From: Escherichia phage teqdroes | DNA: 64,000 nt | Sequence record: NC_054932.1 | Direction: 5' to 3' (one strand) | In this document: positions 287 to 38,164 of the stretch, piece by piece | Layout of the letters: every line of letters starts with the position of its first letter | Position numbering within the stretch: the stretch's first letter is position 1 | The notes under the pieces: model-generated | What the model saw: only the letters and a program-made list of their open reading frames with translations | Told to the model about the DNA's origin: nothing | Databases searched by the model: none | Translations under genes and position numbers: made by a program

Positions 287-3200
287 TTATGCTAAACGAA
301 CGATATAGTTAAAAGCAATGTTTTTAACCGTGTTTTCTGTATTACCTGTACTATTTACAGTGATAGTATGACCATGCGAGCCAATTGCTACCGTGTGGGT
401 ATGAGCACCGATACCTACAGTATGGGTATGAGCACCAATACCTACTGTGTGAGCATGGTTACCTGTAGTGCTTGTAGTACCAGACCAAGTATGAGTATGA
501 GCACCGTCTGAAGAAGTTTTGGCTATATTCGACCCTGCAGTAGCACCGTTCACGGTTCCAGTGAATTTAGCGTTGGCGTTTGCACCTACACTATTATATC
601 CGTCATAGAATATGTTATTGGGTATGCCGGCTTGTATCTGAGGACCTGAGCGCGCATGTTGGTGTGCACCAGCAGAACTCGTAGTACCGCTTACAGTATG
701 AGAGTGGTTACCTGTGGTATTGCTAGTCTTAGTGCCATAGTCAAAGCTACTTGTCGTCTTAGTACCATAATCAAAACTCGACGTAGTTTTAGTACCCAAG
801 TCAGTACTTGAAGCCGATGCACTATGGCTATGAGCCTTAACACCATCGGCTTCTGCGCTTAATACAGCTCGACCACTTGGTTTACCTTTAATAGTTTGCC
901 CGCGCATATCTGGAATTACGCCAGATGGGTAAGCCATAGCCAATTTTGGGTATGCAGACTTATCAAAAGTCTGGCCTTCCATAATAGCGTAACCGTCAGG
1001 AGGAGTATCCGTTGGCCATGGAATAGGAGCACCGATTGGGTAACTCGATACAATATCGGTTTTAAGTGATTCAATTGTACTGTTTAAATTAGCAAAATTG
1101 CCAGAACCACCTGTAATATTGCCGTCTGTACCTAAATAAACTGAACCACCAGCAGAAACACGCTTAGGAGATATAAAATCACCATTTTTGTTAAATTCCC
1201 AACCTAAATCCTTTATAATAGCGCCAGTCGAACCGCCATCGCCGCCTTCATGATAATGAACTCTGAAGTTACCGCCGTTAATTAGAGTTCCCAGAGAATA
1301 ACAACTGTTTCCTTGGACATATCGTTGTTTCAAAATAGGAACGTAAGTACTTGTATCTGTACGATTAATATTCATATAGAATGGAGCACGAACGTTTTCA
1401 TTATTTTGTGAAGCAAAAGACCCTGCACCAGCCGGGCGAACTGTGTCAGTACATTCAGCATCAATATAAGCTGCTTGTCCTACCTGCATACGGTAATTAG
1501 GAGAAATGCGACTATTACTAGTAACAACAACAAGTTTGGTATCGTTGTCCACAGTAATCATATTACCGCCAGCGCCATCATCGCCTAACGTAACAGAATG
1601 GCGCATTTGTACCATACCATTATTAAGACTAATACTAAGTGGGCGGAGATTACTTATTCCACCACTTTCACCGGCATCTTTAGGAGTCGGGATAATATGT
1701 AATGCTGTTTCTGAGCGACGGAAAATAGCACCGTATTCGGCATTCCAAATTCTTAATGCATCAGCAGTTCCACCAATTTTTACTTGTCCAGTAATAGAAG
1801 AACCACCTTGGACAAACAAACCATTAGACATGGTAACATTACCGACTAAAGTGCTTAATCCATTAACTTTAATACTTCCTCTAGCATTAACTTGTCCATT
1901 GAACTGGGTTACAACAGGCCCAGTAGTTTCAGAGCCACTTGGAGCCACACGCTGTGAATAAAAATAATATCCTTGTCCATCAGCTACTTCAAAAACCGTT
2001 TCACGATTACGATCGCCAGATGCGTTAAATGAATTACCCCATGCTTTAACAGTTACATAGCTTTTATTCTGACCAGCACGAGTACCGCCTTCCCACAAAA
2101 TTTTCTTAGTGCCATCAATTGTAGTAGTTGGAGCGAATGTTAGCCCAGCAGTAGAATTATTAGCTGCTAAATATATGCCATTATATATTGAAAGCTGCTT
2201 AACAGATGTAATACCGCCATCAGCATAAAACATTACATTATTAGAGCCAGTTACCAATTTCAAAATACCCGGGTTAACTTCCATGCCTTCTTGAGTATTA
2301 ATATTAGTTTTGCCTTTACCACGGAAATAGTGGTTCATTTTTCCGCCTGAGTTATAGCCAATATGCGTCTGGCCGTCTCCAGCAGTGTTTTCATCAGCTT
2401 GTGTTTGAACCGATAAAAACGCGGCGTTGGTTCCAGGCATAATCCATGTTGTACCTTGGTCCTCGGAACGACCAAAAATCGCTTTACGGGTACTACGGAA
2501 ACTATCAGGAGTAATAGATGCTAAAGAAAGACCACTAGCAACTAAATCATATACTCCAGTTTTTTTGTATGATAAGCCTGTTGATGCATCACCGATAACT
2601 ATATAACATTCGCCCATTGCTCCAGCGGAGCCGTAGTTATTAATGTTTTCATCTGTTGTAATTGTACCAATTGCGAGTGAGCGTCGTAATACTAAAGCCC
2701 CATCATTACGAAGACCCATTTGTTTATTAACGGCTGTATTACCAGTCCACCAAGAAAGTTCATCACTTTTTCCGGTTTGCGCAGAAGCTAATTCATGATA
2801 AATTGTACCGCCTGATTTAGCTCGAACTTTACGAAGATAGTTTATACCATTTTCTTCGCCTGTTCCAGGATAAACATATTGAACTAATGATTGCGAATCG
2901 TATTGTCCAAATGCTTTTGTATCTAAAATAATATTTTTAGTATTAATCTGAGGCGAAGTAATATTTCCAATAGCTGCAATATTTCCAGATGTAGTTATAC
3001 TACCTCCTGATACTGCTAAACCTCCACCGTCAACAGTAAATCCGCCGTCACGTCGAAACGTCCAATATTTCGAATCGCCAGATTCATTGATATAATGAAT
3101 CTTCAACGAACCTTCAGAAACTAAAGTACCTAATGAAAAAGTTCCATCTTTAAAGCGCTGTTTAATTATAGGATTATATTCAGATGTGGAAGTAGCTGAG

Positions 3201-3544
3201 CTTAAATCTACAAAAATTGGAGCTTTCGCAGTATGTTGACCGGACCAAGCCCCACTTCCAGTAGTACGATAATTAAACTCAATATATCCACCGCTTGCTA
3301 CAATTTGCGGACCAATTAAATTAAATTTTCCAGTCTGTGTATAATCACCAGTTTGAGTGATATTACCACTGATATTACCGCCAGTAGAAATGCTTAAATC
3401 GATGATATTTCCTGAATCATCTTTAGTAAAAATTGTTCTATCTTTTAAGTTTATAGCCAATTCACCTTCGGCTAATACTGAAGCAGCAGGACGTGCACCT
3501 GCGGTTTTGCTTCTTTTAAATTGTATTTGTTTTAAAGTAGCCAT
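287..3544 (-). CDS. 37: Long tail fiber distal subunit gp37 (receptor-binding), 1085 aa
   Basis: ORF track; ends ...[15 protein letters not shown] as in T4 gp37; His-box repeats ([15 protein letters not shown]) typical of the T4 gp37 needle tip; position downstream of 36. Confidence 0.95.
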
Positions 3545-3552
3545 AAGTCCTC

Positions 3553-4218
3553 TTAATAATAGCCGAAATCTTGAACAGAATCCTTAATTACGATTTGGTC
3601 AAATCGTGGAACGTGTGAAGGTTGAGATGCAGGATTCTGCGAGAAAAAGTTTGGCGCTGTTAAATTACCTATCATGGTGTCACCAGACCGTAGCACCCTA
3701 GAGTTTGCATTTGCCGTAACAGTATTTATTGCTCCATCAACATAGTCCTTTCTAGTAAGGTCATTCGCTGCTATAGGAGCAGCCGCATCACTTCTTACTT
3801 GACCTGCTGCCGACACAACGCCTTTTGTACTAATATCACCATTACGTGCATTAATTACAACAGTTCGAGCTGCTGAACCTTGTGATGATTTAAAACCAAT
3901 ACCATTCCACGAAACAATATCGATATTTGCTACAGCAAAAGTAGCATTATCACCGTTACCTGGATAAACACCGCATGGGTTTGTGTTGTTTACAGCATAC
4001 GGAACTTGAATTCCACCGTTAAATGTTACCTTTGATGCATAAGTACCACCATTAGCTTTAGAAACGAAATCGTTATCAGCAGCTTGTGGTTTATTATATT
4101 CTGAATATATTTTAAATGATTTATAGAGTACATCGTCACCGGCTGGATTCAATGGAAAATTTCCTTGATGCCAAATGACAGAGCCTCCGGTTGTTGAACC
4201 TACTTTTAAATCAGCCAT
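3553..4218 (-). CDS. 36: Long tail fiber distal connector gp36, 221 aa
   Basis: ORF track; size and position between 35 and 37 match T4 gp36; SD GAGGA upstream on minus strand. Confidence 0.9.
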
Positions 4219-4242
4219 TGTATGCCCCTTTATTTTAATAGT

Positions 4243-4250
4243 ATTTATAA
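4243..4250 (-). promoter_or_regulatory. Late promoter (TATAAATA) for gene 36/37
   Basis: Plus-strand TATTTATA = minus TATAAATA, ~25 bp upstream of gene 36 ATG. Confidence 0.7.
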
Positions 4251-4257
4251 AGAAAAA

Positions 4258-4275
4258 GGGAACCCGAAGGCTCCC
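4258..4275 (-). terminator. Hairpin terminator after gene 35
   Basis: Minus strand GGGAGCC-UUCG-GGUUCCC followed by UUUUU. Confidence 0.6.
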
Positions 4276-4280
4276 TCAAT

Positions 4281-5396
4281 TTATACTTCTCTAAATTCTT
4301 GCCCAAACACTTTACCAGTTTTAGATGATGCTTGCGTAGGAAGTACCATTATATCCGGAGGTGAAGCGGATTCACAGATATAATTAACACGAATACCGTT
4401 GACGCCAAATTCAGCAGGTTTTGAAATACCACCGTTTCTTGATACTTCAGAAAAGCTTAAATTTCTCATGCCACCTTGGCCAGCTTTAGCAGTTCTTTGT
4501 GCATATATCGTAAATCCTACAGCGTTTTCTGGAACAACTACATAATCTTCCTTTAATTCCCATGACCCAGCTTGTCCGGTAAATTCAGCTTGTGTCGAGG
4601 AAATATATCCATTTGATGCATTATAAAAACGGATAGATATATTTGTAGTTCCAAGAGCAAGTAAATCGGCATCAGCATATAACTGAGCTTTAAGATAAAG
4701 AACATCGCCAGGAATTAAATTATAATCAGATAATTTACTTATAGTAGCTGAAGTTGGTAGACGCGCAATTTCGTTATTAGTTCCACCAACCGCTGACATG
4801 AATTGCTCAACGCTTTCATACGTTCTTCTTGGAAACCCGGTAGCTCCGACGTCTTCTAAACTGTCAAATACAACATCTAAAATAGTTTGATAATCATCTG
4901 TGCTTTTTCTATTACTTAATTTAACATGCTCTAATGCAATAGCTCTTTTAGAAGAAGTATAAAAAGCAGCATATGATACGTCGAATCTTGACAATATAGA
5001 ATCAGATGGAAAAGCAGACGTTCCGGCGGTTCTTAACCAAGATACTACTTCAGGAGGAAAATTAACCTTTCCACTAGTTAATATAGCGACAATTCGATTA
5101 TTCGTCAAAGAATTCATGAAACTAACAAAAGCAGCTGATGTAGTATCATTTGAAGTCGAAAAAGCATATGACTTACTATCAACTAATGCTCCGGTGGAAG
5201 GGTCAAAAACTCTTAAATGAAGACCTGCGCTAAATGTTTGACTTCCTACAGGATTATCCTGAAATTTAACGTATGGTCCTGCTGTAGAAAGCGGGCAAGA
5301 ACCCGCTATACTTATTTTGTATCTTACTGAATTACTTTCCGATAAAAATGGCGTTTGGACATATCCTTGTCCAAACTCTGCCATAAATTTTTCCAT
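4281..5396 (-). CDS. 35: Long tail fiber hinge protein gp35, 371 aa
   Basis: ORF track; size and synteny 34-35-36-37. Confidence 0.9.
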   Translation of the reverse strand: MEKFMAEFGQGYVQTPFLSESNSVRYKISIAGSCPLSTAGPYVKFQDNPVGSQTFSAGLHLRVFDPSTGALVDSKSYAFSTSNDTTSAAFVSFMNSLTNNRIVAILTSGKVNFPPEVVSWLRTAGTSAFPSDSILSRFDVSYAAFYTSSKRAIALEHVKLSNRKSTDDYQTILDVVFDSLEDVGATGFPRRTYESVEQFMSAVGGTNNEIARLPTSATISKLSDYNLIPGDVLYLKAQLYADADLLALGTTNISIRFYNASNGYISSTQAEFTGQAGSWELKEDYVVVPENAVGFTIYAQRTAKAGQGGMRNLSFSEVSRNGGISKPAEFGVNGIRVNYICESASPPDIMVLPTQASSKTGKVFGQEFREV

Positions 5397-31666: not shown

Positions 31667-31935
31667 TGTTTGTTGTTCACACTATTTATGAAAATGAAGG
31701 TAATACTACACGTGATTACGGTCACGTAAATCAATTTTTTAGATGCAATCCAGAATTCCGAGCTCAAAAAGACGAACGAATTTTTAAAAAATGTGTAGAG
31801 CAAGGTTTCATTTACGTCAAACACTGGATGCAAGGAAATAAAGTTAGAACCACGTACCATAGGTCTTTGACTGAGCTTAATGATGAATTGATTTATAATA
31901 GAGCTGTAAACCAAACTCTAAAGGATGAACAATGA
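31666..31935 (+). CDS. Hypothetical protein, 89 aa (30.1-like position)
   Basis: ORF track; coupled to gene 30. Confidence 0.5.
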   Translation: MFVVHTIYENEGNTTRDYGHVNQFFRCNPEFRAQKDERIFKKCVEQGFIYVKHWMQGNKVRTTYHRSLTELNDELIYNRAVNQTLKDEQ

Positions 31936-33395
31936 TTCTTAAAATTCTGAACGAAATAGCATCTATTGGTTCAACTAAGCAGAAGCAAGCAATTCTTGAA
32001 AAGAATAAAGATAATGAATTGCTTAAACGAGTATATCGTCTGACTTATTCTCGTGGGTTGCAGTATTATATCAAGAAATGGCCTAAATCTGGTATTGCTA
32101 CCCAGAGTTTTGGAATGTTGACTCTTACCGATATGCTTGACTTCATTGAATTCACGTTAGCTACTCGGAAATTGACTGGAAATGCGGCAATTGAGGAATT
32201 AACTGGATATATCACTGATGGTAAAAAAGATGATGTTGAAGTTTTGCGTCGAGTGATGATGCGAGACCTTGAATGTGGTGCTTCAGTATCTATTGCAAAC
32301 AAAGTTTGGCCAGGTTTAATTCCTGAACAACCTCAAATGCTCGCAAGTTCTTATGATGAAAAAGGCATTAGTAAGAATATCAAATTTCCAGCCTTTGCAC
32401 AATTAAAAGCAGATGGAGCTCGGTGTTTTGCTGAAGTTAGAGGTGATGAATTAGATGATGTCCGTCTTTTATCACGAGCTGGTAATGAATATCTAGGATT
32501 AGATCTTCTTAAGGAAGAGTTAATCAAAATGACCGCTGAAGCCCGCCAGATTCATCCAGAAGGTGTGTTAATTGATGGCGAATTGGTATACCATGAGCAA
32601 GTTAAAAAGGAGCCAGAAGGCCTAGATTTTCTTTTTGATGCTTATCCTGAAATTAGTAAAGCTAAAGAGTTTGCTGAAGTAGCTGAATCACGTACTACTT
32701 CTAATGGAATCGCTAATAAATCTTTAAAGGGAACTATTTCAGAAAAAGAAGCTCAATGCATGAAGTTTCAGGTCTGGGATTATGTTCCGTTGGTAGAAAT
32801 ATACGGTCTTCCAGCATTTCGTTTAAAATATGATGTACGTTTTTCTAAATTAGAACAAATGACATCAGGATATGATAAAGTAATTTTAATTGAAAACCAA
32901 GTAGTAAATAACCTAGATGAAGCTAAGGTAATTTATAAAAAGTATATTGACCAAGGTCTTGAAGGTATTATTCTCAAAAATATCGATGGATTATGGGAAA
33001 ATGCTCGTTCAAAAAATCTCTATAAATTTAAAGAAGTAATTGATGTTGATTTAAAAATTGTAGGAATTTATCCTCACCGTAAAGACCCTACTAAAGCAGG
33101 TGGATTTATTCTTGAGTCAGAGTGTGGAAAAATTAAGGTAAATGCCGGTTCAGGCTTAAAAGATAAAGCCGGCGTAAAATCACATGAACTTGACCGTACT
33201 CGCATTATGGAAAACCAAAATTATTATATTGGAAAAATTCTAGAGTGCGAATGCAACGGTTGGTTAAAATCCGATGGCCGCACTGATTACGTTAAATTAT
33301 TTCTTCCGATTGCGATTCGTTTACGTGAAGATAAAACTAAAGCTAATACATTCGAAGATGTATTTGGTGATTTTCATGAGGTAACTGGTCTATGA
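31932..33395 (+). CDS. 30: ATP-dependent DNA ligase, 487 aa
   Basis: Length equals T4 ligase; adenylation motif KADGAR (AQLKADGARCF). Confidence 0.96.
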   Translation: MILKILNEIASIGSTKQKQAILEKNKDNELLKRVYRLTYSRGLQYYIKKWPKSGIATQSFGMLTLTDMLDFIEFTLATRKLTGNAAIEELTGYITDGKKDDVEVLRRVMMRDLECGASVSIANKVWPGLIPEQPQMLASSYDEKGISKNIKFPAFAQLKADGARCFAEVRGDELDDVRLLSRAGNEYLGLDLLKEELIKMTAEARQIHPEGVLIDGELVYHEQVKKEPEGLDFLFDAYPEISKAKEFAEVAESRTTSNGIANKSLKGTISEKEAQCMKFQVWDYVPLVEIYGLPAFRLKYDVRFSKLEQMTSGYDKVILIENQVVNNLDEAKVIYKKYIDQGLEGIILKNIDGLWENARSKNLYKFKEVIDVDLKIVGIYPHRKDPTKAGGFILESECGKIKVNAGSGLKDKAGVKSHELDRTRIMENQNYYIGKILECECNGWLKSDGRTDYVKLFLPIAIRLREDKTKANTFEDVFGDFHEVTGL

Positions 33396-33580
33396 AAGCT
33401 TACTTAGAAACAATTGTCGTGGCTCAAAAAGAAGGTGGAGATGTTTCTACTTCTGTATCACAAATCATGATTGAATTTATAGATGCATATGCTTATAATA
33501 AATTCACAGAAACTTTTGATGCTTATGAAAAAGGTCCAAAGTTTGAAATATATCGTACTCTCTTACCAATAGATTATTAA
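33392..33580 (+). CDS. Hypothetical protein, 62 aa
   Basis: ORF track; ATGA overlap with ligase stop; followed by UUCG hairpin. Confidence 0.45.
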   Translation: MKAYLETIVVAQKEGGDVSTSVSQIMIEFIDAYAYNKFTETFDAYEKGPKFEIYRTLLPIDY

Positions 33581-33603
33581 AGGCCTTCGGGCCTTTAATT
33601 TTA
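33579..33603 (+). terminator. Hairpin (UUCG tetraloop), weak terminator upstream of alt
   Basis: AAAGGCC-UUCG-GGCCUUU followed by AAUUUUA. Confidence 0.5.
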
Positions 33604-33629
33604 TAAATAGAATAAACACTAGAGAGGCT

Positions 33630-35726
33630 ATGATGGAACTTATTACAGAATTATTTGACGAAGATACTACTCTTCCGATTACAAACTTAAATCCAAAGAA
33701 GAAAATACCGCAAATTTTTTCAGTTCGTGTTGATGATGCAATTGAACAACCAGGCTTTCGTTTATGCACCTATACATCTGGAGGTGATACTAATCGCGAT
33801 TTAAAGATGGGCGATAAAATGATGCATATTGTTCCTTTTACATTAACTGCCAAAGGTTCAATTGCTAAATTAAAAGGTCTCGGTCCAAGCCCAATTAATT
33901 ATATCAATTCAGTTTTTACTGTTGCAATGCAAACAATGCGTCAGTATAAAATTGATGCTTGTATGCTTCGTATTCTTAAGTCTAAAACCGCTGGTCAAGC
34001 TCGACAAATTCAAGTTATTGCTGATAGACTTATCCGTAGTCGTTCAGGTGGCAGATACGTCCTTCTTAAGGAACTCTGGGATTATGATAAAAAGTATGCA
34101 TATATTCTTATACATCGCAAAAATGTATCACTAGAAGACATTCCAGGAGTTCCGGAAATTAGTACCGAGCTCTTTACTAAAGTTGAATCGAAAGTCGGCG
34201 ATGTTTATATCAATAAAGATACTGGAGCTCAAGTAACTAAAAATGAGGCAATTGCAGCATCTATTGCACAAGAAAATGATAAACGTTCTGACCAAGCTGT
34301 AATCGTTAAAGTTAAAATTTCCCGTAGAGCAATTGCGCAAAGTCAATCATTGGAATCTTCTAGATTTGAAAGTGAATTATTCCAGAAGTATGAATCTACC
34401 GCAGCTAATTTCAATAAACCTGCTACCGCTCCTTTAATTCCCGAAGCAGAAGAAATGAAACTTGGAATTAATTCATTAGCTTCTAAAACTAAGGCAGCAA
34501 AAATTATTGCCGAAGGAACCGCAGATGAACTTCATTATGACTATAAATTCTTTTCAAAAAGTGAGGTTAATGAAGTTTCTGAAAAAATTAAAGATGTAAT
34601 TCTTAATGCGATTAAAAATGAACCGACTACTTCAATAAAATGTTTAGAGAAATACGCAGCAGCTGTTAATCAATTATTTGAAGAATATAAAGATAATTGG
34701 CTTGATAAACATAATAAAACCCGTAAAGGACAGCCAGATGAAGTCTGGGAAGAAATGACTAAAAATTCCTGGAACGCAGCAAAAACTAAATTCCTCAAAA
34801 GAATGATTTACAGCTTTTCTGGAATTGGTGCAGGTCCAATGATTGATATTACTATTGCCCGTGATGGTTCTAAATATACTCCATCACAAAAGCGCGGCAT
34901 TAGAGAGTATTGTGGTTCAGGATATACTGACATCAATAATCTTCTTTTGGGTCGTTACAATCCAGAACGATATGATGTAATGAGTGAAAAAGAAATTGAA
35001 TCTGCTATAAATAACTTAGATTCAGCTTTTGAAAACGGTGACCGTATACCAGAAGGCATTACAGTTTATCGTGCTCAAAGCATGACTGCTCCTATATACG
35101 AAGCACTAGTTAAAAATAAAGTGTTCTATTTCAGAAATTTTGTATCTACTTCTTTAACTCCTATCATTTTTGGACGTTTTGGAATTACGCATACTGGTAT
35201 TGGTCTTTTAGAACCAGAAGCTCGTAATGAATTGACAGTTGATAAAAATGAAGAAGGAATAACTATTAATCCAAGCGAAATAAGAGCGTATAAAGAAAAT
35301 CCTGAATACGTTAAAGTTCAAATAGGATGGGCAATTGATGGAGCTCATAAAGTTAATGTTGTATATCCAGGAAGTCTCGGAATAGCAACAGAAGCTGAAG
35401 TTATTCTACCGCGCGGATTGATGGTCAAAGTTAATAAAATAACTGATGCTTCTAATAATGACGGAACAACATCTAATAATACAAAACTCATTCAAGCTGA
35501 AGTTATGACCACAGAAGAACTCACCGAATCAGTAATCTATGACGGAGACCATTTAATGGAAACTGGTGAATTGGTTACAATGACAGGTGATATTGAAATA
35601 GAAGACAGAGTTGACTTTGCATCATTTGTTTCATCAAATGTTAAACAAAAAGTAGAATCATCTCTTGGAATTATTGCGTCTTGCATAGATATTGCAAACA
35701 TGCCTTACAAGTTCGTTCAAGGATAA
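33630..35726 (+). CDS. alt: Alt ADP-ribosyltransferase (packaged internal protein), 697-698 aa
   Basis: N-terminus MELITELFD (I-T-E site for prohead protease), ART motifs YRAQ, STS, EAEVILPRG; size close to T4 Alt (682 aa). Confidence 0.9.
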   Translation: MMELITELFDEDTTLPITNLNPKKKIPQIFSVRVDDAIEQPGFRLCTYTSGGDTNRDLKMGDKMMHIVPFTLTAKGSIAKLKGLGPSPINYINSVFTVAMQTMRQYKIDACMLRILKSKTAGQARQIQVIADRLIRSRSGGRYVLLKELWDYDKKYAYILIHRKNVSLEDIPGVPEISTELFTKVESKVGDVYINKDTGAQVTKNEAIAASIAQENDKRSDQAVIVKVKISRRAIAQSQSLESSRFESELFQKYESTAANFNKPATAPLIPEAEEMKLGINSLASKTKAAKIIAEGTADELHYDYKFFSKSEVNEVSEKIKDVILNAIKNEPTTSIKCLEKYAAAVNQLFEEYKDNWLDKHNKTRKGQPDEVWEEMTKNSWNAAKTKFLKRMIYSFSGIGAGPMIDITIARDGSKYTPSQKRGIREYCGSGYTDINNLLLGRYNPERYDVMSEKEIESAINNLDSAFENGDRIPEGITVYRAQSMTAPIYEALVKNKVFYFRNFVSTSLTPIIFGRFGITHTGIGLLEPEARNELTVDKNEEGITINPSEIRAYKENPEYVKVQIGWAIDGAHKVNVVYPGSLGIATEAEVILPRGLMVKVNKITDASNNDGTTSNNTKLIQAEVMTTEELTESVIYDGDHLMETGELVTMTGDIEIEDRVDFASFVSSNVKQKVESSLGIIASCIDIANMPYKFVQG

Positions 35727-35729
35727 ATC

Positions 35730-37787
35730 ATGGAACTTATTACAGAATTATTTGACGGCGCTTCGGCGCCGGTTGTTAACTTAAATCCTAAGCATAAAAT
35801 ACCTCAAATTTTTGCTATTCAAGCCGGCGAAGAAAGTGTGCTTCCTGGATTTAGATTTTGTACATACACCTCTGGCGGTGATACAAATAAAAACGTTAAG
35901 CCGGGCGATAAAATGATGCATATCGTAATGATAGGTGTCAACGAGAAATTATCGCTGGTTAAGCTTAGAAACTTGGGTGGAAATCCAATTGGCGTCATTA
36001 ATGCTGTTTTTGATACTGCTCTTCAAACAATGAAACAGTATAAAATCGACGCATGCCTATTCCGCGTACTAAAGAGTAAAACAAATGGCGCAGCTCGTCA
36101 AATGCAAGTTATTGCTGACCGTTTAGTACGTACTAAAGGAGCAGGTCGATATGTTCTCTTAAAGGAAATCTGGGACTATGATAAGAAATATGCATATATT
36201 ATGGTTTACCGTAAAAATGCCAATTTAGAAGACATTCCAGGTGTACCTCCTATTTCAACTGAGTTATTCACAAAAGTTGAATCAAAGGTTGGTGATGTTT
36301 ATGTAGACGTTAAAACAGGTAATGCTGTTCCTAAAGCTGTTGCTGTTGCTGCTTCTATTGCTTTAGAAAATGATAAGCGCACGGATCAAGCTGTTATTCA
36401 GAAAACTAAAATTAGTCGTCGATTAGCAGCACAAGCTCAATATTCTACTGTTGATGCTTCACTTCAGGGTGATAGCTTCGCCGCTAAGAAATATCAAGAG
36501 TTTGAATCTAAAGTTCCGGTATATAAAGCAGAAGGACCAATGAACTCCGGGGTTATCCAGATTGGTTCAAACTTCGGCAAAGGAGCTATCGGTGGTATGA
36601 GAAGTGCTTCTCGTTTTAAATCTAGTGATTATGAACTAGAAAGCTTCCGAAATCATATTGCATTAGCCCATGCACGTTTACGTGATCCATCTATCAAGTT
36701 GCAGAGCGATATAACATATCAAGGTTCTCAAGAATATTTAAAGAATAAAGAATTCTTTGATTATAAAACTGATAAAATTTTAAGCGATCTTGCTGACATT
36801 AATATTTCTAATAGCTTTGATGTTATTAAGAAAATTATTAATGATTTAGTTAAAGGTTCTAAAGCTACGCCAGATGAAAAGACAGCTATTATTCAATTTG
36901 TCATGAATGGCATTTATAAATTGATTAATGAATCTGCTGCCCAGGCATATGAATACGCAAGCACCGAAGTAACTCCAAAAGGATTAACCCAAGCTGAATC
37001 TGATGTAATTGAAGATTATTGTGCAGATTCATATGTTGAAATGAACTCGTTCCTTTTGGGTAAACCAGATTCTACCCGTGAAGAATATATGGAACGAGCT
37101 ATTAAGCACATCGAGACGTTGGATTCTGCCTTTGCCAAAGGATCAGTTCTTCCTCCAGGAACTACACTTTACCGTGGACAAGAAGTTACCTTTAAAACTT
37201 TGCGTCATAACATTGAAAACAAAATGTTCTATTTCAAGAACTTCGTATCGACATCACTTAAACCAAATATCTTCGGTGAGCATGGTAAAAACTATATGGC
37301 TCTAGATGATTCCGGCGCAGTATTTTCTGGCGAAGGAGAAGGTTCCGTTGATGCAGAAGATTTAATGCATATGGGTAGTCATTCTACATATGCCATTGAA
37401 GATGCTGAAACTAGCGTGGGTATGGTAATTAAAGGAGCTGAGCGAATCAAAGTTATCGTTCCAGGTCATTTATCAGGATTTCCATCAGAAGCTGAAGTTA
37501 TTCTACCGCGTGGAATTTTACTGAAGATTAATAAAGTAAGTACGTACTTTATGAAAGAAACTGCTTATAACAAGTATCTAATCGAAGGTACAATCGTTCC
37601 TCCTTCTGAACAATTAGAAGAATCAGTATATGATGGCGACCATTTAATGGAAACTGGTGAAGTTCGTCCAATGGCTGGATTTAATCAATTCCTTGTAGAA
37701 GAATCAAAAGAAGAGGAAAACGAAGTTTCTCAAATCTTGGCTTCTTTGGTTAACATCAACGGAATGTCTAAAAAGTTCAAGATGTAG
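35730..37787 (+). CDS. Alt-like ADP-ribosyltransferase paralog, 685 aa
   Basis: Same N-terminal MELITELFD, conserved first ~230 aa and C-terminal ART motifs (YRGQ, STS, EAEVILPRG), divergent middle. Confidence 0.85.
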   Translation: MELITELFDGASAPVVNLNPKHKIPQIFAIQAGEESVLPGFRFCTYTSGGDTNKNVKPGDKMMHIVMIGVNEKLSLVKLRNLGGNPIGVINAVFDTALQTMKQYKIDACLFRVLKSKTNGAARQMQVIADRLVRTKGAGRYVLLKEIWDYDKKYAYIMVYRKNANLEDIPGVPPISTELFTKVESKVGDVYVDVKTGNAVPKAVAVAASIALENDKRTDQAVIQKTKISRRLAAQAQYSTVDASLQGDSFAAKKYQEFESKVPVYKAEGPMNSGVIQIGSNFGKGAIGGMRSASRFKSSDYELESFRNHIALAHARLRDPSIKLQSDITYQGSQEYLKNKEFFDYKTDKILSDLADINISNSFDVIKKIINDLVKGSKATPDEKTAIIQFVMNGIYKLINESAAQAYEYASTEVTPKGLTQAESDVIEDYCADSYVEMNSFLLGKPDSTREEYMERAIKHIETLDSAFAKGSVLPPGTTLYRGQEVTFKTLRHNIENKMFYFKNFVSTSLKPNIFGEHGKNYMALDDSGAVFSGEGEGSVDAEDLMHMGSHSTYAIEDAETSVGMVIKGAERIKVIVPGHLSGFPSEAEVILPRGILLKINKVSTYFMKETAYNKYLIEGTIVPPSEQLEESVYDGDHLMETGEVRPMAGFNQFLVEESKEEENEVSQILASLVNINGMSKKFKM

Positions 37788-37816
37788 TTTACAAGTCCCT
37801 CGTGTTGTGTTATAGT
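37787..37816 (+). promoter_or_regulatory. Early promoter, copy B of the duplicated promoter-leader cassette
   Basis: GTTTACAAGTCCCTCGTGTTGTGTTATAGT; 52/54 identity to the 22001-22055 copy through the leader AACATGAGGA. Confidence 0.65.
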
Positions 37817-37847: not shown

Positions 37848-38138
37848 ATGAAATCTTCTTTGCGCTTTTTAGGTCAAGAACTTGTAGTTGAAGGCGTTAT
37901 TCCTGCTGATAATGCTTTTAATGAAGCAGTTTATGATGAATTTATCAAAATTTTTGGAACAGATAAAAAGTTCGGAATTTTTCCTTCTGAAAATTTTTCA
38001 AAGCCAGAACAAACTGAAAGTATTTTCCAAGGTGTAGTAACAGGTAAATTCGAGTCAGAAGCTCCGGTAAAAATTGAAGTTTATATTGAAGACAGTTTAG
38101 TTGCTTCAGTTTCTGCTTTCATTTCATTCCGTAAATAA
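37848..38138 (+). CDS. Hypothetical protein, 96 aa
   Basis: ORF track; SD GAGGA; downstream of early promoter copy at 37787-37816. Confidence 0.55.
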   Translation: MKSSLRFLGQELVVEGVIPADNAFNEAVYDEFIKIFGTDKKFGIFPSENFSKPEQTESIFQGVVTGKFESEAPVKIEVYIEDSLVASVSAFISFRK

Positions 38139-38142
38139 AAAT

Positions 38143-38164
38143 ATGGGGACCGAAAGGTCCCCAT
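38143..38164 (-). terminator. Bidirectional hairpin terminator between the 96-aa ORF (+) and gene 54 (-)
   Basis: AUGGGGACC-GAAA-GGUCCCCAU with U-rich flank on the minus strand. Confidence 0.7.

Follow-up and report, generated by a model that had tools for sequence, protein, structure and literature searches.

The window analysed here is a stretch of 64,000 nucleotides (nt) of Escherichia phage teqdroes (NC_054932.1). We consider two tandem open reading frames (ORFs) in it, ORF1 (alt, 697 amino acids, aa) and ORF2 (685 aa), which from their sequences are true paralogues of the Alt family of ADP-ribosyltransferases, both with intact catalytic residues. The segment is T4-like (Tequatrovirus), and the + strand of the window corresponds to the T4 minus strand. 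On the + strand the order of genes is 30 (ligase), alt.1, ORF1, ORF2 and alt.-3; genes 54, 48 and 29 follow on the opposite strand. The two ORFs thus lie between alt.1 and alt.-3, near genes 30 and 54 and with a late promoter, i.e., in the genomic slot of alt, and 3 nt separate the stop of ORF1 from the start of ORF2. We see here the alt operon of a Tequatrovirus other than T4, present in its common two-gene state. All coordinates are collected in Table 1.

Domains and active sites of the two proteins

The first-pass annotation, made from the letters of the window, described adjacent ORFs of 697 and 685 aa with a shared MELITELFD start, a conserved N-terminus and C-terminal catalytic motifs; the list of ORFs, BLASTP and the motif positions confirm each of these points. 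Aligned end to end by BLASTP, the proteins are 41% identical over 718 columns (E 8e-158), and their first 9 residues are the same. Identity is distributed unevenly: 68% in aa 1-235, 10-17% in aa 240-415, 34% in the ADP-ribosyltransferase domain and 42% in the C-terminal tail. Within the catalytic domain, the loop between the S-T-S and E-x-E motifs (~526-555) retains 8%, and the residues immediately preceding E-x-E differ (GFPS in ORF2, GIAT in ORF1). The middle is therefore as strongly divergent as had been claimed; its length, given earlier as ~250 residues, is instead ~175 (240-415), to which the loop at ~526-555 is added.

ORF1 consists of an N-terminal domain (aa 1-236), a helical middle domain (aa 239-411), the ADP-ribosyltransferase domain (aa 412-627) and a tail (aa 628-697); the corresponding parts of ORF2 are listed in Table 1. 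Both ORFs match the Pfam family PF03496 (ADPrib_exo_Tox) with 129 bits for ORF1 and 71.8 bits for ORF2, the gathering cut-off being 23.4, and both match phrog_802 (Alt-like RNA polymerase ADP-ribosyltransferase) over the whole length (E 2e-272 and 8.6e-256, respectively). Close homologues carry PF26846 (Tevenvirinae_ADPRT) together with PF03496. An NCBIfam search gave no match, and Pfam gave none above noise for the N-terminal and middle parts.

The active-site motifs are YRAQ at 479, STS at 505-507 and EAEVILPRG at 587 in ORF1, and YRGQ at 481, STS at 507-509 and EAEVILPRG at 587 in ORF2; in both ORFs their order and spacing are those expected of the family. In an alignment of 25 family members, R482, S507, S509, E587 and E589 (ORF2 numbering) are invariant; the second copy keeps the catalytic Arg, S-T-S and E-x-E, and the loss that the first-pass annotation had named as a point of danger for its reading is not seen. 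A sequence search of the PDB with ORF1 returned weak matches to CdtA and iota toxin only, in which the Arg and ExE align with catalytic residues of CdtA and iota toxin Ia; the same search gave nothing for ORF2 or for a profile of the N-terminal domain. Arginine is the predicted acceptor, the signature being E-x-E and not Q-x-E. On this signature, both ORFs are predicted to have an arginine-specific mono-ADP-ribosyltransferase domain of the C3/VIP2 type.

An AlphaFold2 model of ORF2, built on the 25-sequence alignment, has a mean pLDDT of 76. It contains an alpha/beta N-terminal domain (~12-225), a linker of low confidence (228-239, extending to ~247 in a truncated model), an all-helical middle domain (250-415, pLDDT 80-92) and the catalytic domain (420-625); pLDDT of the tail is <50 from residue 629. 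Foldseek against the PDB matched the catalytic domain only, namely with Vis, C3bot, Certhrax, CDTa, iota-like toxins and VIP2 (E 1e-7 to 1e-4, best 9e-8). The target-normalised TM-score is 0.58-0.65 for the single-domain enzymes (Vis, C3 and the catalytic domain of Certhrax) and ~0.3 for the two-domain components of binary toxins (CDTa, iota-like, VIP2). C3bot, Vis, Certhrax, CDTa, iota Ia and VIP2 thus share the fold and the R/S-T-S/E-x-E site with the Alt proteins. The C3-like and binary toxins are, however, only 13-20% identical to them; they are toxins that bacteria secrete, they have neither the N-terminal nor the middle domain of the phage proteins, and they take other routes to their targets. 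Matches of the middle domain to CagA, colicins and GPCRs were dismissed as uninformative, being generic matches of helical bundles.

Against BFVD, the ORF2 model matches Alt homologues. A model of aa 1-420 of ORF2 (35730-36989) also matches large uncharacterised proteins over 170-250 columns (E 1e-5 to 1e-3), which is the size of the N-terminal domain; these proteins belong to unrelated myoviruses (Ackermannviridae and Vibrio, Agrobacterium and Aeromonas phages), and some are annotated with zeta-toxin, deaminase or ParB/sulfiredoxin domains. The N-terminal domain may be a shared delivery module; we treat these model-based matches as leads and not as conclusions.

The second gene in other phages and the history of the pair

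Megablast of the 4.8-kb region finds it at 97-99% identity in hundreds of phage genomes, with at least 80% coverage in 340 records, and tblastn finds ORF2 at no less than 95% identity in 395 phage records. The survey of T4-like genomes that the first-pass annotation had called for shows the second gene in ~400 of ~500 Tequatrovirus records, T2 included. The second gene is named 'alt.-2 ... similar to alt' in RB32, 'Alt-like RNA polymerase ADP-ribosyltransferase' in T2, 'altb' in JS98 and 'ADP-ribosyltransferase Alt2' in the BASEL phages Bas35, 37, 39, 42, 44 and 45. The copies that RB32, T2 and the BASEL phages have in this position share 97-99% identity with ORF2 and show no structural difference from it; we call ORF2 Alt2 below. 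The tandem pair is thus already known as an annotated gene pair in hundreds of public genomes, and the novelty of a second copy, implied earlier, has to be withdrawn.

Whether T4 itself carries the second copy had been left undecided. It has no intact gene; it has a frameshifted remnant, alt.-1/alt.-2, with a 1.7-kb deletion. The remnant has been known since the T4 genome was annotated: the T4 record describes the 61-aa alt.-1 and the 67-aa alt.-2 as 'an old duplication of the first part of gene alt'. In DNA and protein alignments the two match codons 1-117 of ORF2 collinearly, with 90-97% identity at the nucleotide level, and the T4 flanks of the remnant are ~97% identical to the window. A 1-nt deletion in an A-run (~35889 of the window) splits alt.-1 from alt.-2; the missing segment of 1,699 bp has CTAAA microhomology at its bounds. 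These alignments show alt.-1 and alt.-2 to be what is left of a full-length Alt2; alt was not partially duplicated. Of 497 records that match a 140-bp probe spanning the T4 deletion junction, 91 cover it completely, and the deletion is therefore a natural minority allele rather than a laboratory artefact of T4.

Compared with RB32, ORF2 has 47 synonymous and 5 non-synonymous differences (ratio of non-synonymous to synonymous rates, dN/dS, 0.027), and compared with FriedrichMiescher 58 and 6 (0.026). The ratio is low alike in the N-terminal, middle, catalytic and tail parts; for ORF1 it is 0.069. Such values point to strong purifying selection on ORF2 and to a working gene. A pseudogene, considered as a candidate explanation, was ruled out by dN/dS.

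The only experimental data that we found come from the supplement of the HIDEN-SEQ preprint (10.1101/2025.11.20.689424), where Bas37 has the same pair (Alt 2097 nt, Alt2 2058 nt). Insertions were found at 116 of the 164 TA sites of Bas37 Alt2, with a mean count of 44.5 and the class 'Intermediate'; Alt had a mean count of 203.6 and was 'Non-essential', and neighbouring genes had 170-395. In three other hosts there was no extra depletion of Alt2 (log2 fold change, log2FC, 0.11, 0.19 and 0.00), and Alt2 is not discussed in the text of the preprint. The transposon data suggest that Alt2 matters more than Alt for fitness in E. coli K-12. That ORF2 is a decaying duplicate or a functionless pseudo-enzyme would accord with its T4 counterpart, a pseudogene remnant which the T4 annotation calls an old duplication; however, the intact frame of 685 codons, dN/dS of ~0.026, conservation at ≥95% identity across the 395 records, the intact catalytic motifs and the measurable fitness effect in Bas37 make it highly improbable.

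The age of the pair can be judged from JS98 (Dhakavirus), which has AltA and AltB in the same slot. Bit scores pair ORF1 with AltA (651 vs 325 with AltB) and ORF2 with AltB (625 vs 305 with AltA); ORF2 is the reciprocal best match of AltB, with 48% identity overall. In the middle and catalytic domains, respectively, identity is 34% and 60% for ORF1-AltA, 44% and 57% for ORF2-AltB, and 10-17% and 34-39% between paralogues. The N-terminal domain groups by genome instead (ORF1-ORF2 68%, AltA-AltB 65%, across genomes 42-46%). Since the middle and catalytic domains follow orthology and the N-terminal domain follows the genome, the duplication is older than the split of Tequatrovirus and Dhakavirus, and the N-terminal ~235 aa evolve in concert within each genome.

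Between the A and B lineages the middle domains have no detectable homology (hhalign probability 0.2%, E 0.36). When the middle domain of ORF2 (aa 240-415; 36447-36974) was searched by itself with HMMER against 1.8 billion representatives, there were 0 matches, its own cluster being missed as well; the search is uninformative. A profile of the N-terminal domain, run against a set of 5.8 billion proteins, found only 7 N-only fragments of split alt genes and no new architectures.

ORF1 in its turn differs from T4 Alt in an uneven way. It is 97-100% identical over aa 1-238, ~69% over aa 239-264, 15-40% over aa 265-410 (the middle), 60-83% in the catalytic domain with 28% over aa 526-555, and again 93-100% over aa 615-697. 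As identity is not collinear along the protein, ORF1 is best described as a mosaic allele relative to T4 Alt and not as its strict orthologue. About 318 records have the ORF1 type and ~175 the T4 type, and the A lineage holds several (at least four) types of middle domain. T4 Alt (682 aa) shares with ORF1 and ORF2 the slot, the late promoter, the four-part architecture, the R/S-T-S/E-x-E site, MELITE↓L (arrows mark known or predicted cuts) and DGDHLMETGE. ORF2 is 41-43% identical to T4 Alt overall, and its middle domain is unrelated.

The two copies also recombine. In four metagenomic proteins (P0003-P0006) an Alt2 body follows an N-terminus of the Alt type, and the breakpoints are near residues 55, 108, 190 and 222; in 2 contigs the hybrid is the sole gene between alt.1 and alt.-3, and in the other 2 it lies directly 3' of alt.1 and the contig ends at the gene. 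Phage ECML-134 has a single hybrid of this kind (breakpoint between residues 100 and 175), as does SCS4, judged from the tblastn table alone, and Yersinia phage PST (breakpoint near residue 102). KAW1E185 has the reverse hybrid, Alt up to EAEVILPRG followed by the Alt2 tail. The three longest exact nucleotide matches of ORF1 and ORF2 lie at the gene start (28 nt), the ExE site (25 nt) and DGDHLMETGE (24 nt), and the KAW1E185 breakpoint coincides with the identical 25-nt EAEVILPRG segment. From these comparisons, single hybrid alt genes arise by unequal crossover between the tandem paralogues, and ends are exchanged between Alt and Alt2 copies in viable phages. Assembly artefacts were considered as a source of the hybrids and rejected: there is no exact ORF1/ORF2 match of 31 nt or longer, and complete genomes of cultured phages carry hybrids.

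The identical first 28 nt occupy 33633-33660 and 35730-35757. Third codon positions are 90% identical over the first 30 codons vs 40-62% over the rest of the N-terminal domain, suggesting either that gene conversion took place recently or that the nucleotide sequence of the gene starts is constrained.

The history of the pair bears on whether Alt2 could be a redundant back-up or dosage copy that modifies what Alt modifies (RNA polymerase alpha and others). The common family, architecture, operon and E-x-E (arginine) signature agree with redundancy, as does the fact that natural phages can lose either copy. We hold it for quite unlikely, considering that the lineages have been distinct since before the Tequatrovirus/Dhakavirus split, that their middle domains lack detectable homology and that insertions in Bas37 lower fitness in Alt2 and not in Alt.

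Probable packaging, possible targets and alternative readings

T4 Alt is a protein of the prohead core, present in ~40 copies per head and ejected with the DNA; gp21 trims both of its ends, a C-terminal propeptide included (PMC9026906). For its N-terminus, record X15811 states '6 amino acids cleaved off'. Both ORFs carry ITE↓L at residues 4-6, the type of site cut by gp21 in T4 Alt, and an invariant L(T/E)ES.YDGDHLMETGE in the tail, with the sequence motifs L(T/E)E↓S and LME↓T; this segment lies where the ORF2 model turns disordered. In ORF2 this region corresponds to aa 629-644, LEESVYDGDHLMETGE, which holds two gp21-type sites of the form [LI]xE (LEE↓S and LME↓T) and is a candidate C-terminal processing site for gp21.

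Overall, we believe with a probability of roughly 65% that both proteins are packaged and injected ADP-ribosyltransferases, each with its own set of host targets. The N-terminal alpha/beta domain (~235 aa, Pfam Tevenvirinae_ADPRT) most likely docks the protein into the prohead core, and gp21 probably trims both proteins after ITE (residue 6) and at the DGDHLMETGE tail. Both would then be carried in the head and injected with the DNA, and in the host each would ADP-ribosylate its own set of proteins. The helical middle domain (~175 aa), unlike between the lineages, most likely selects the target; we infer that specificity is likely determined by this domain, by the loop linking S-T-S to E-x-E and by the residues that precede E-x-E (GFPS vs GIAT). 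Shared late transcription, the concerted N-terminus, the end-swapped hybrids and the presence of both sites make the same route of packaging, processing and injection the most economical assumption for the two proteins. For Alt2, packaging, gp21 processing, injection and a distinct target are plausible and well-supported inferences.

Different targets would agree with the finding that Alt variants are not interchangeable against Mokosh type I: T4 Alt aids evasion of this system, and Alt of Bas37 cannot replace it (preprint 10.1101/2025.11.20.689424). Bas37 Alt has the same length as ORF1 and, judged by length, is likely of the same allele type. As Bas37 Alt did not substitute for T4 Alt, the activities of the latter (on RNA polymerase alpha and MazF, and evasion of Mokosh type I) are not simply transferable to ORF1 and ORF2.

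Another possibility is that Alt2 is active and unpackaged: like ModA and ModB it would act without injection, late in the cell that makes it and on proteins of host or phage. T4 ModA and ModB belong, according to the literature, to the same clade of phage R-S-E ADP-ribosyltransferases as the Alt proteins; they differ in being ~200 aa long, early and unpackaged, without the N-terminal and middle domains. Late expression of Alt2, the lack of proteomic evidence in the literature for its presence in virions, and a fitness cost of insertions even in the defence-poor K-12 are in line with such a role. The Alt2 protein nevertheless retains, under strong purifying selection, the entire N-terminal domain of Alt, ITE↓L and the unvarying motif of the C-terminus. 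Alt2 and the packaged Alt have homogenised N-terminal domains, and hybrids with swapped ends persist in nature; we consider the unpackaged enzyme unlikely.

It could also be presumed that Alt2 is mainly a structural or assembly part of the prohead core with catalysis secondary, so that its disruption disturbs head assembly and gives intermediate essentiality. T4 Alt is a core component with its ~40 copies per head, the effect in K-12 is intermediate, and the N-terminal domain co-evolves within each genome. Since the catalytic residues do not vary, the catalytic domain has as low a dN/dS as the middle domain, and T4 and its relatives assemble normal heads without Alt2, this proposal is very unlikely in our opinion.

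Several points weigh against the packaged and injected pair with separate targets. Natural phages can do without Alt2: in T4 and a further 90 records only the remnant left by the deletion is present, and in KAW1E185 the body of Alt2 is missing. The 'Intermediate' class in Bas37 could be due to harmful truncated products rather than to loss of function. Literature searches turned up no functional study of Alt2/alt.-2 and, with a search for proteomics included, no evidence that Alt2 is found in virions, cut by gp21, injected or catalytically active. The profiles of the middle domains are shallow (Neff 2.7), and a very remote homology between them is possible. Finally, because alt is non-essential, the viability of phages with hybrids is no proof that the hybrids are packaged.

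A wider proposal is put forward tentatively, as one that may well fail: that Alt2, lost by the reference phage T4, is another effector delivered by the capsid and directed at a separate host target, and that the alt slot is modular. If it holds, work based on T4 has missed a fitness-relevant part of host take-over by T-even phages, the slot is organised as a delivery domain with an exchangeable cassette for targeting and catalysis, and the N-terminal domain is a portable head-delivery module, matched to the prohead core by recombination between the copies. Nearly all knowledge of phage-injected ADP-ribosyltransferases comes from T4, i.e., from one Alt allele and a remnant of Alt2, while most natural T-even phages, including T2, have two intact enzymes. 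Identification of the Alt2 target would show more of how injected enzymes take over the host and counter its defences, and the modular layout (a shared delivery domain, unrelated middles and natural hybrids) suggests a route for loading foreign enzymes into T-even capsids. What is new in this report is the age of the duplication, the concerted N-terminus, the unrelated middle domains, the mosaic nature of ORF1 and the hybrids formed by unequal crossover.

Expression signals and neighbouring genes

A T4-type late promoter, TATAAATA, lies 24 nt 5' of the alt ATG; this octamer is the consensus of T4 late promoters. Promoter scans found none directly before ORF2, where an AAGGA Shine-Dalgarno sequence is present. 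As ORF2 has no promoter of its own at the junction, both genes appear to be driven by one late promoter, ORF2 being co-transcribed and probably translationally coupled to ORF1. A second exact TATAAATA is located inside ORF1 at 35006-35013 (codons for A-I-N-N), ~720 nt before the start of ORF2; Alt2 could have an internal late promoter here, or the match could be due to chance. Across the window the octamer occurs 18 times vs 9.3 expected.

Table 1. Features of the alt locus, in window positions unless another phage is named
Feature	Position	Strand	Remark
Gene 30 (ligase)	31932-33395	+	
alt.1	33392-33580	+	62 aa; Pfam Phage_blade (PF24647); upstream neighbour, start of the alt slot
Terminator-like hairpin	33580-33595	+	AAGGCC-TTCG-GGCCTT and T-rich run directly 3' of the alt.1 stop codon; sequence reading
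Putative late promoter of alt	33602-33609	+	TATAAATA; promoter scan
Shine-Dalgarno sequence of alt	33622-33627	+	GAGAGG
ORF1 (alt)	33633-35726	+	697 aa; 698 aa from the double ATG at 33630
ORF1 R480	35070-35072	+	Catalytic residue
ORF1 S505-T506-S507	35145-35153	+	Catalytic residues
ORF1 E587-A-E589	35391-35399	+	Catalytic residues
ORF1/ORF2 junction	35718-35732	+	AAGGA in the end of ORF1; TAA 35724-35726; ORF2 ATG 35730
ORF2 (Alt2/alt.-2/AltB lineage)	35730-37787	+	685 aa
ORF2 N-terminal domain	35730-36434	+	aa 1-235
Segment deleted in T4 and 90 other records	36069-37767	+	1,699 bp
ORF2 helical middle domain	36447-36974	+	aa 240-415
ORF2 ADP-ribosyltransferase domain	36975-37604	+	aa 416-625
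ORF2 R482	37173-37175	+	Catalytic residue
ORF2 S507-T508-S509	37248-37256	+	Catalytic residues
ORF2 E587-A-E589	37488-37496	+	Catalytic residues
ORF2 disordered tail	37605-37784	+	aa 626-685
ORF2 tail motif	37614-37661	+	aa 629-644; family-invariant linear motif in the disordered tail
Early-type promoter	37788-37816	+	(G)TTTACA-17-TATAGT with upstream TG; serves alt.-3; promoter scan
alt.-3	37848-38138	+	96 aa; DUF5498; downstream neighbour, end of the alt slot
Hairpin terminator	38143-38164	.	Bidirectional; between alt.-3 and gene 54
Hybrid gene, ECML-134	2501-4561		Position in the compared locus
Hybrid gene, PST	2501-4561		Position in the compared locus
Hybrid gene, KAW1E185	2501-4558		Position in the compared locus

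The hairpin directly after alt.1 looks like a terminator and would set the early unit of gene 30 and alt.1 apart from alt; in KAW1E185 a terminator is annotated at the equivalent position. The start of alt.1 overlaps the end of gene 30, and its Pfam match is to a recent family, 'Phage blade protein'.

Downstream of the pair, the HIDEN-SEQ data for uropathogenic E. coli CFT073 show a significant depletion of bas37_0031, the Bas37 orthologue of alt.-3 (log2FC -2.70, adjusted p 0.02), and alt.-3 may be a conditionally needed early gene.

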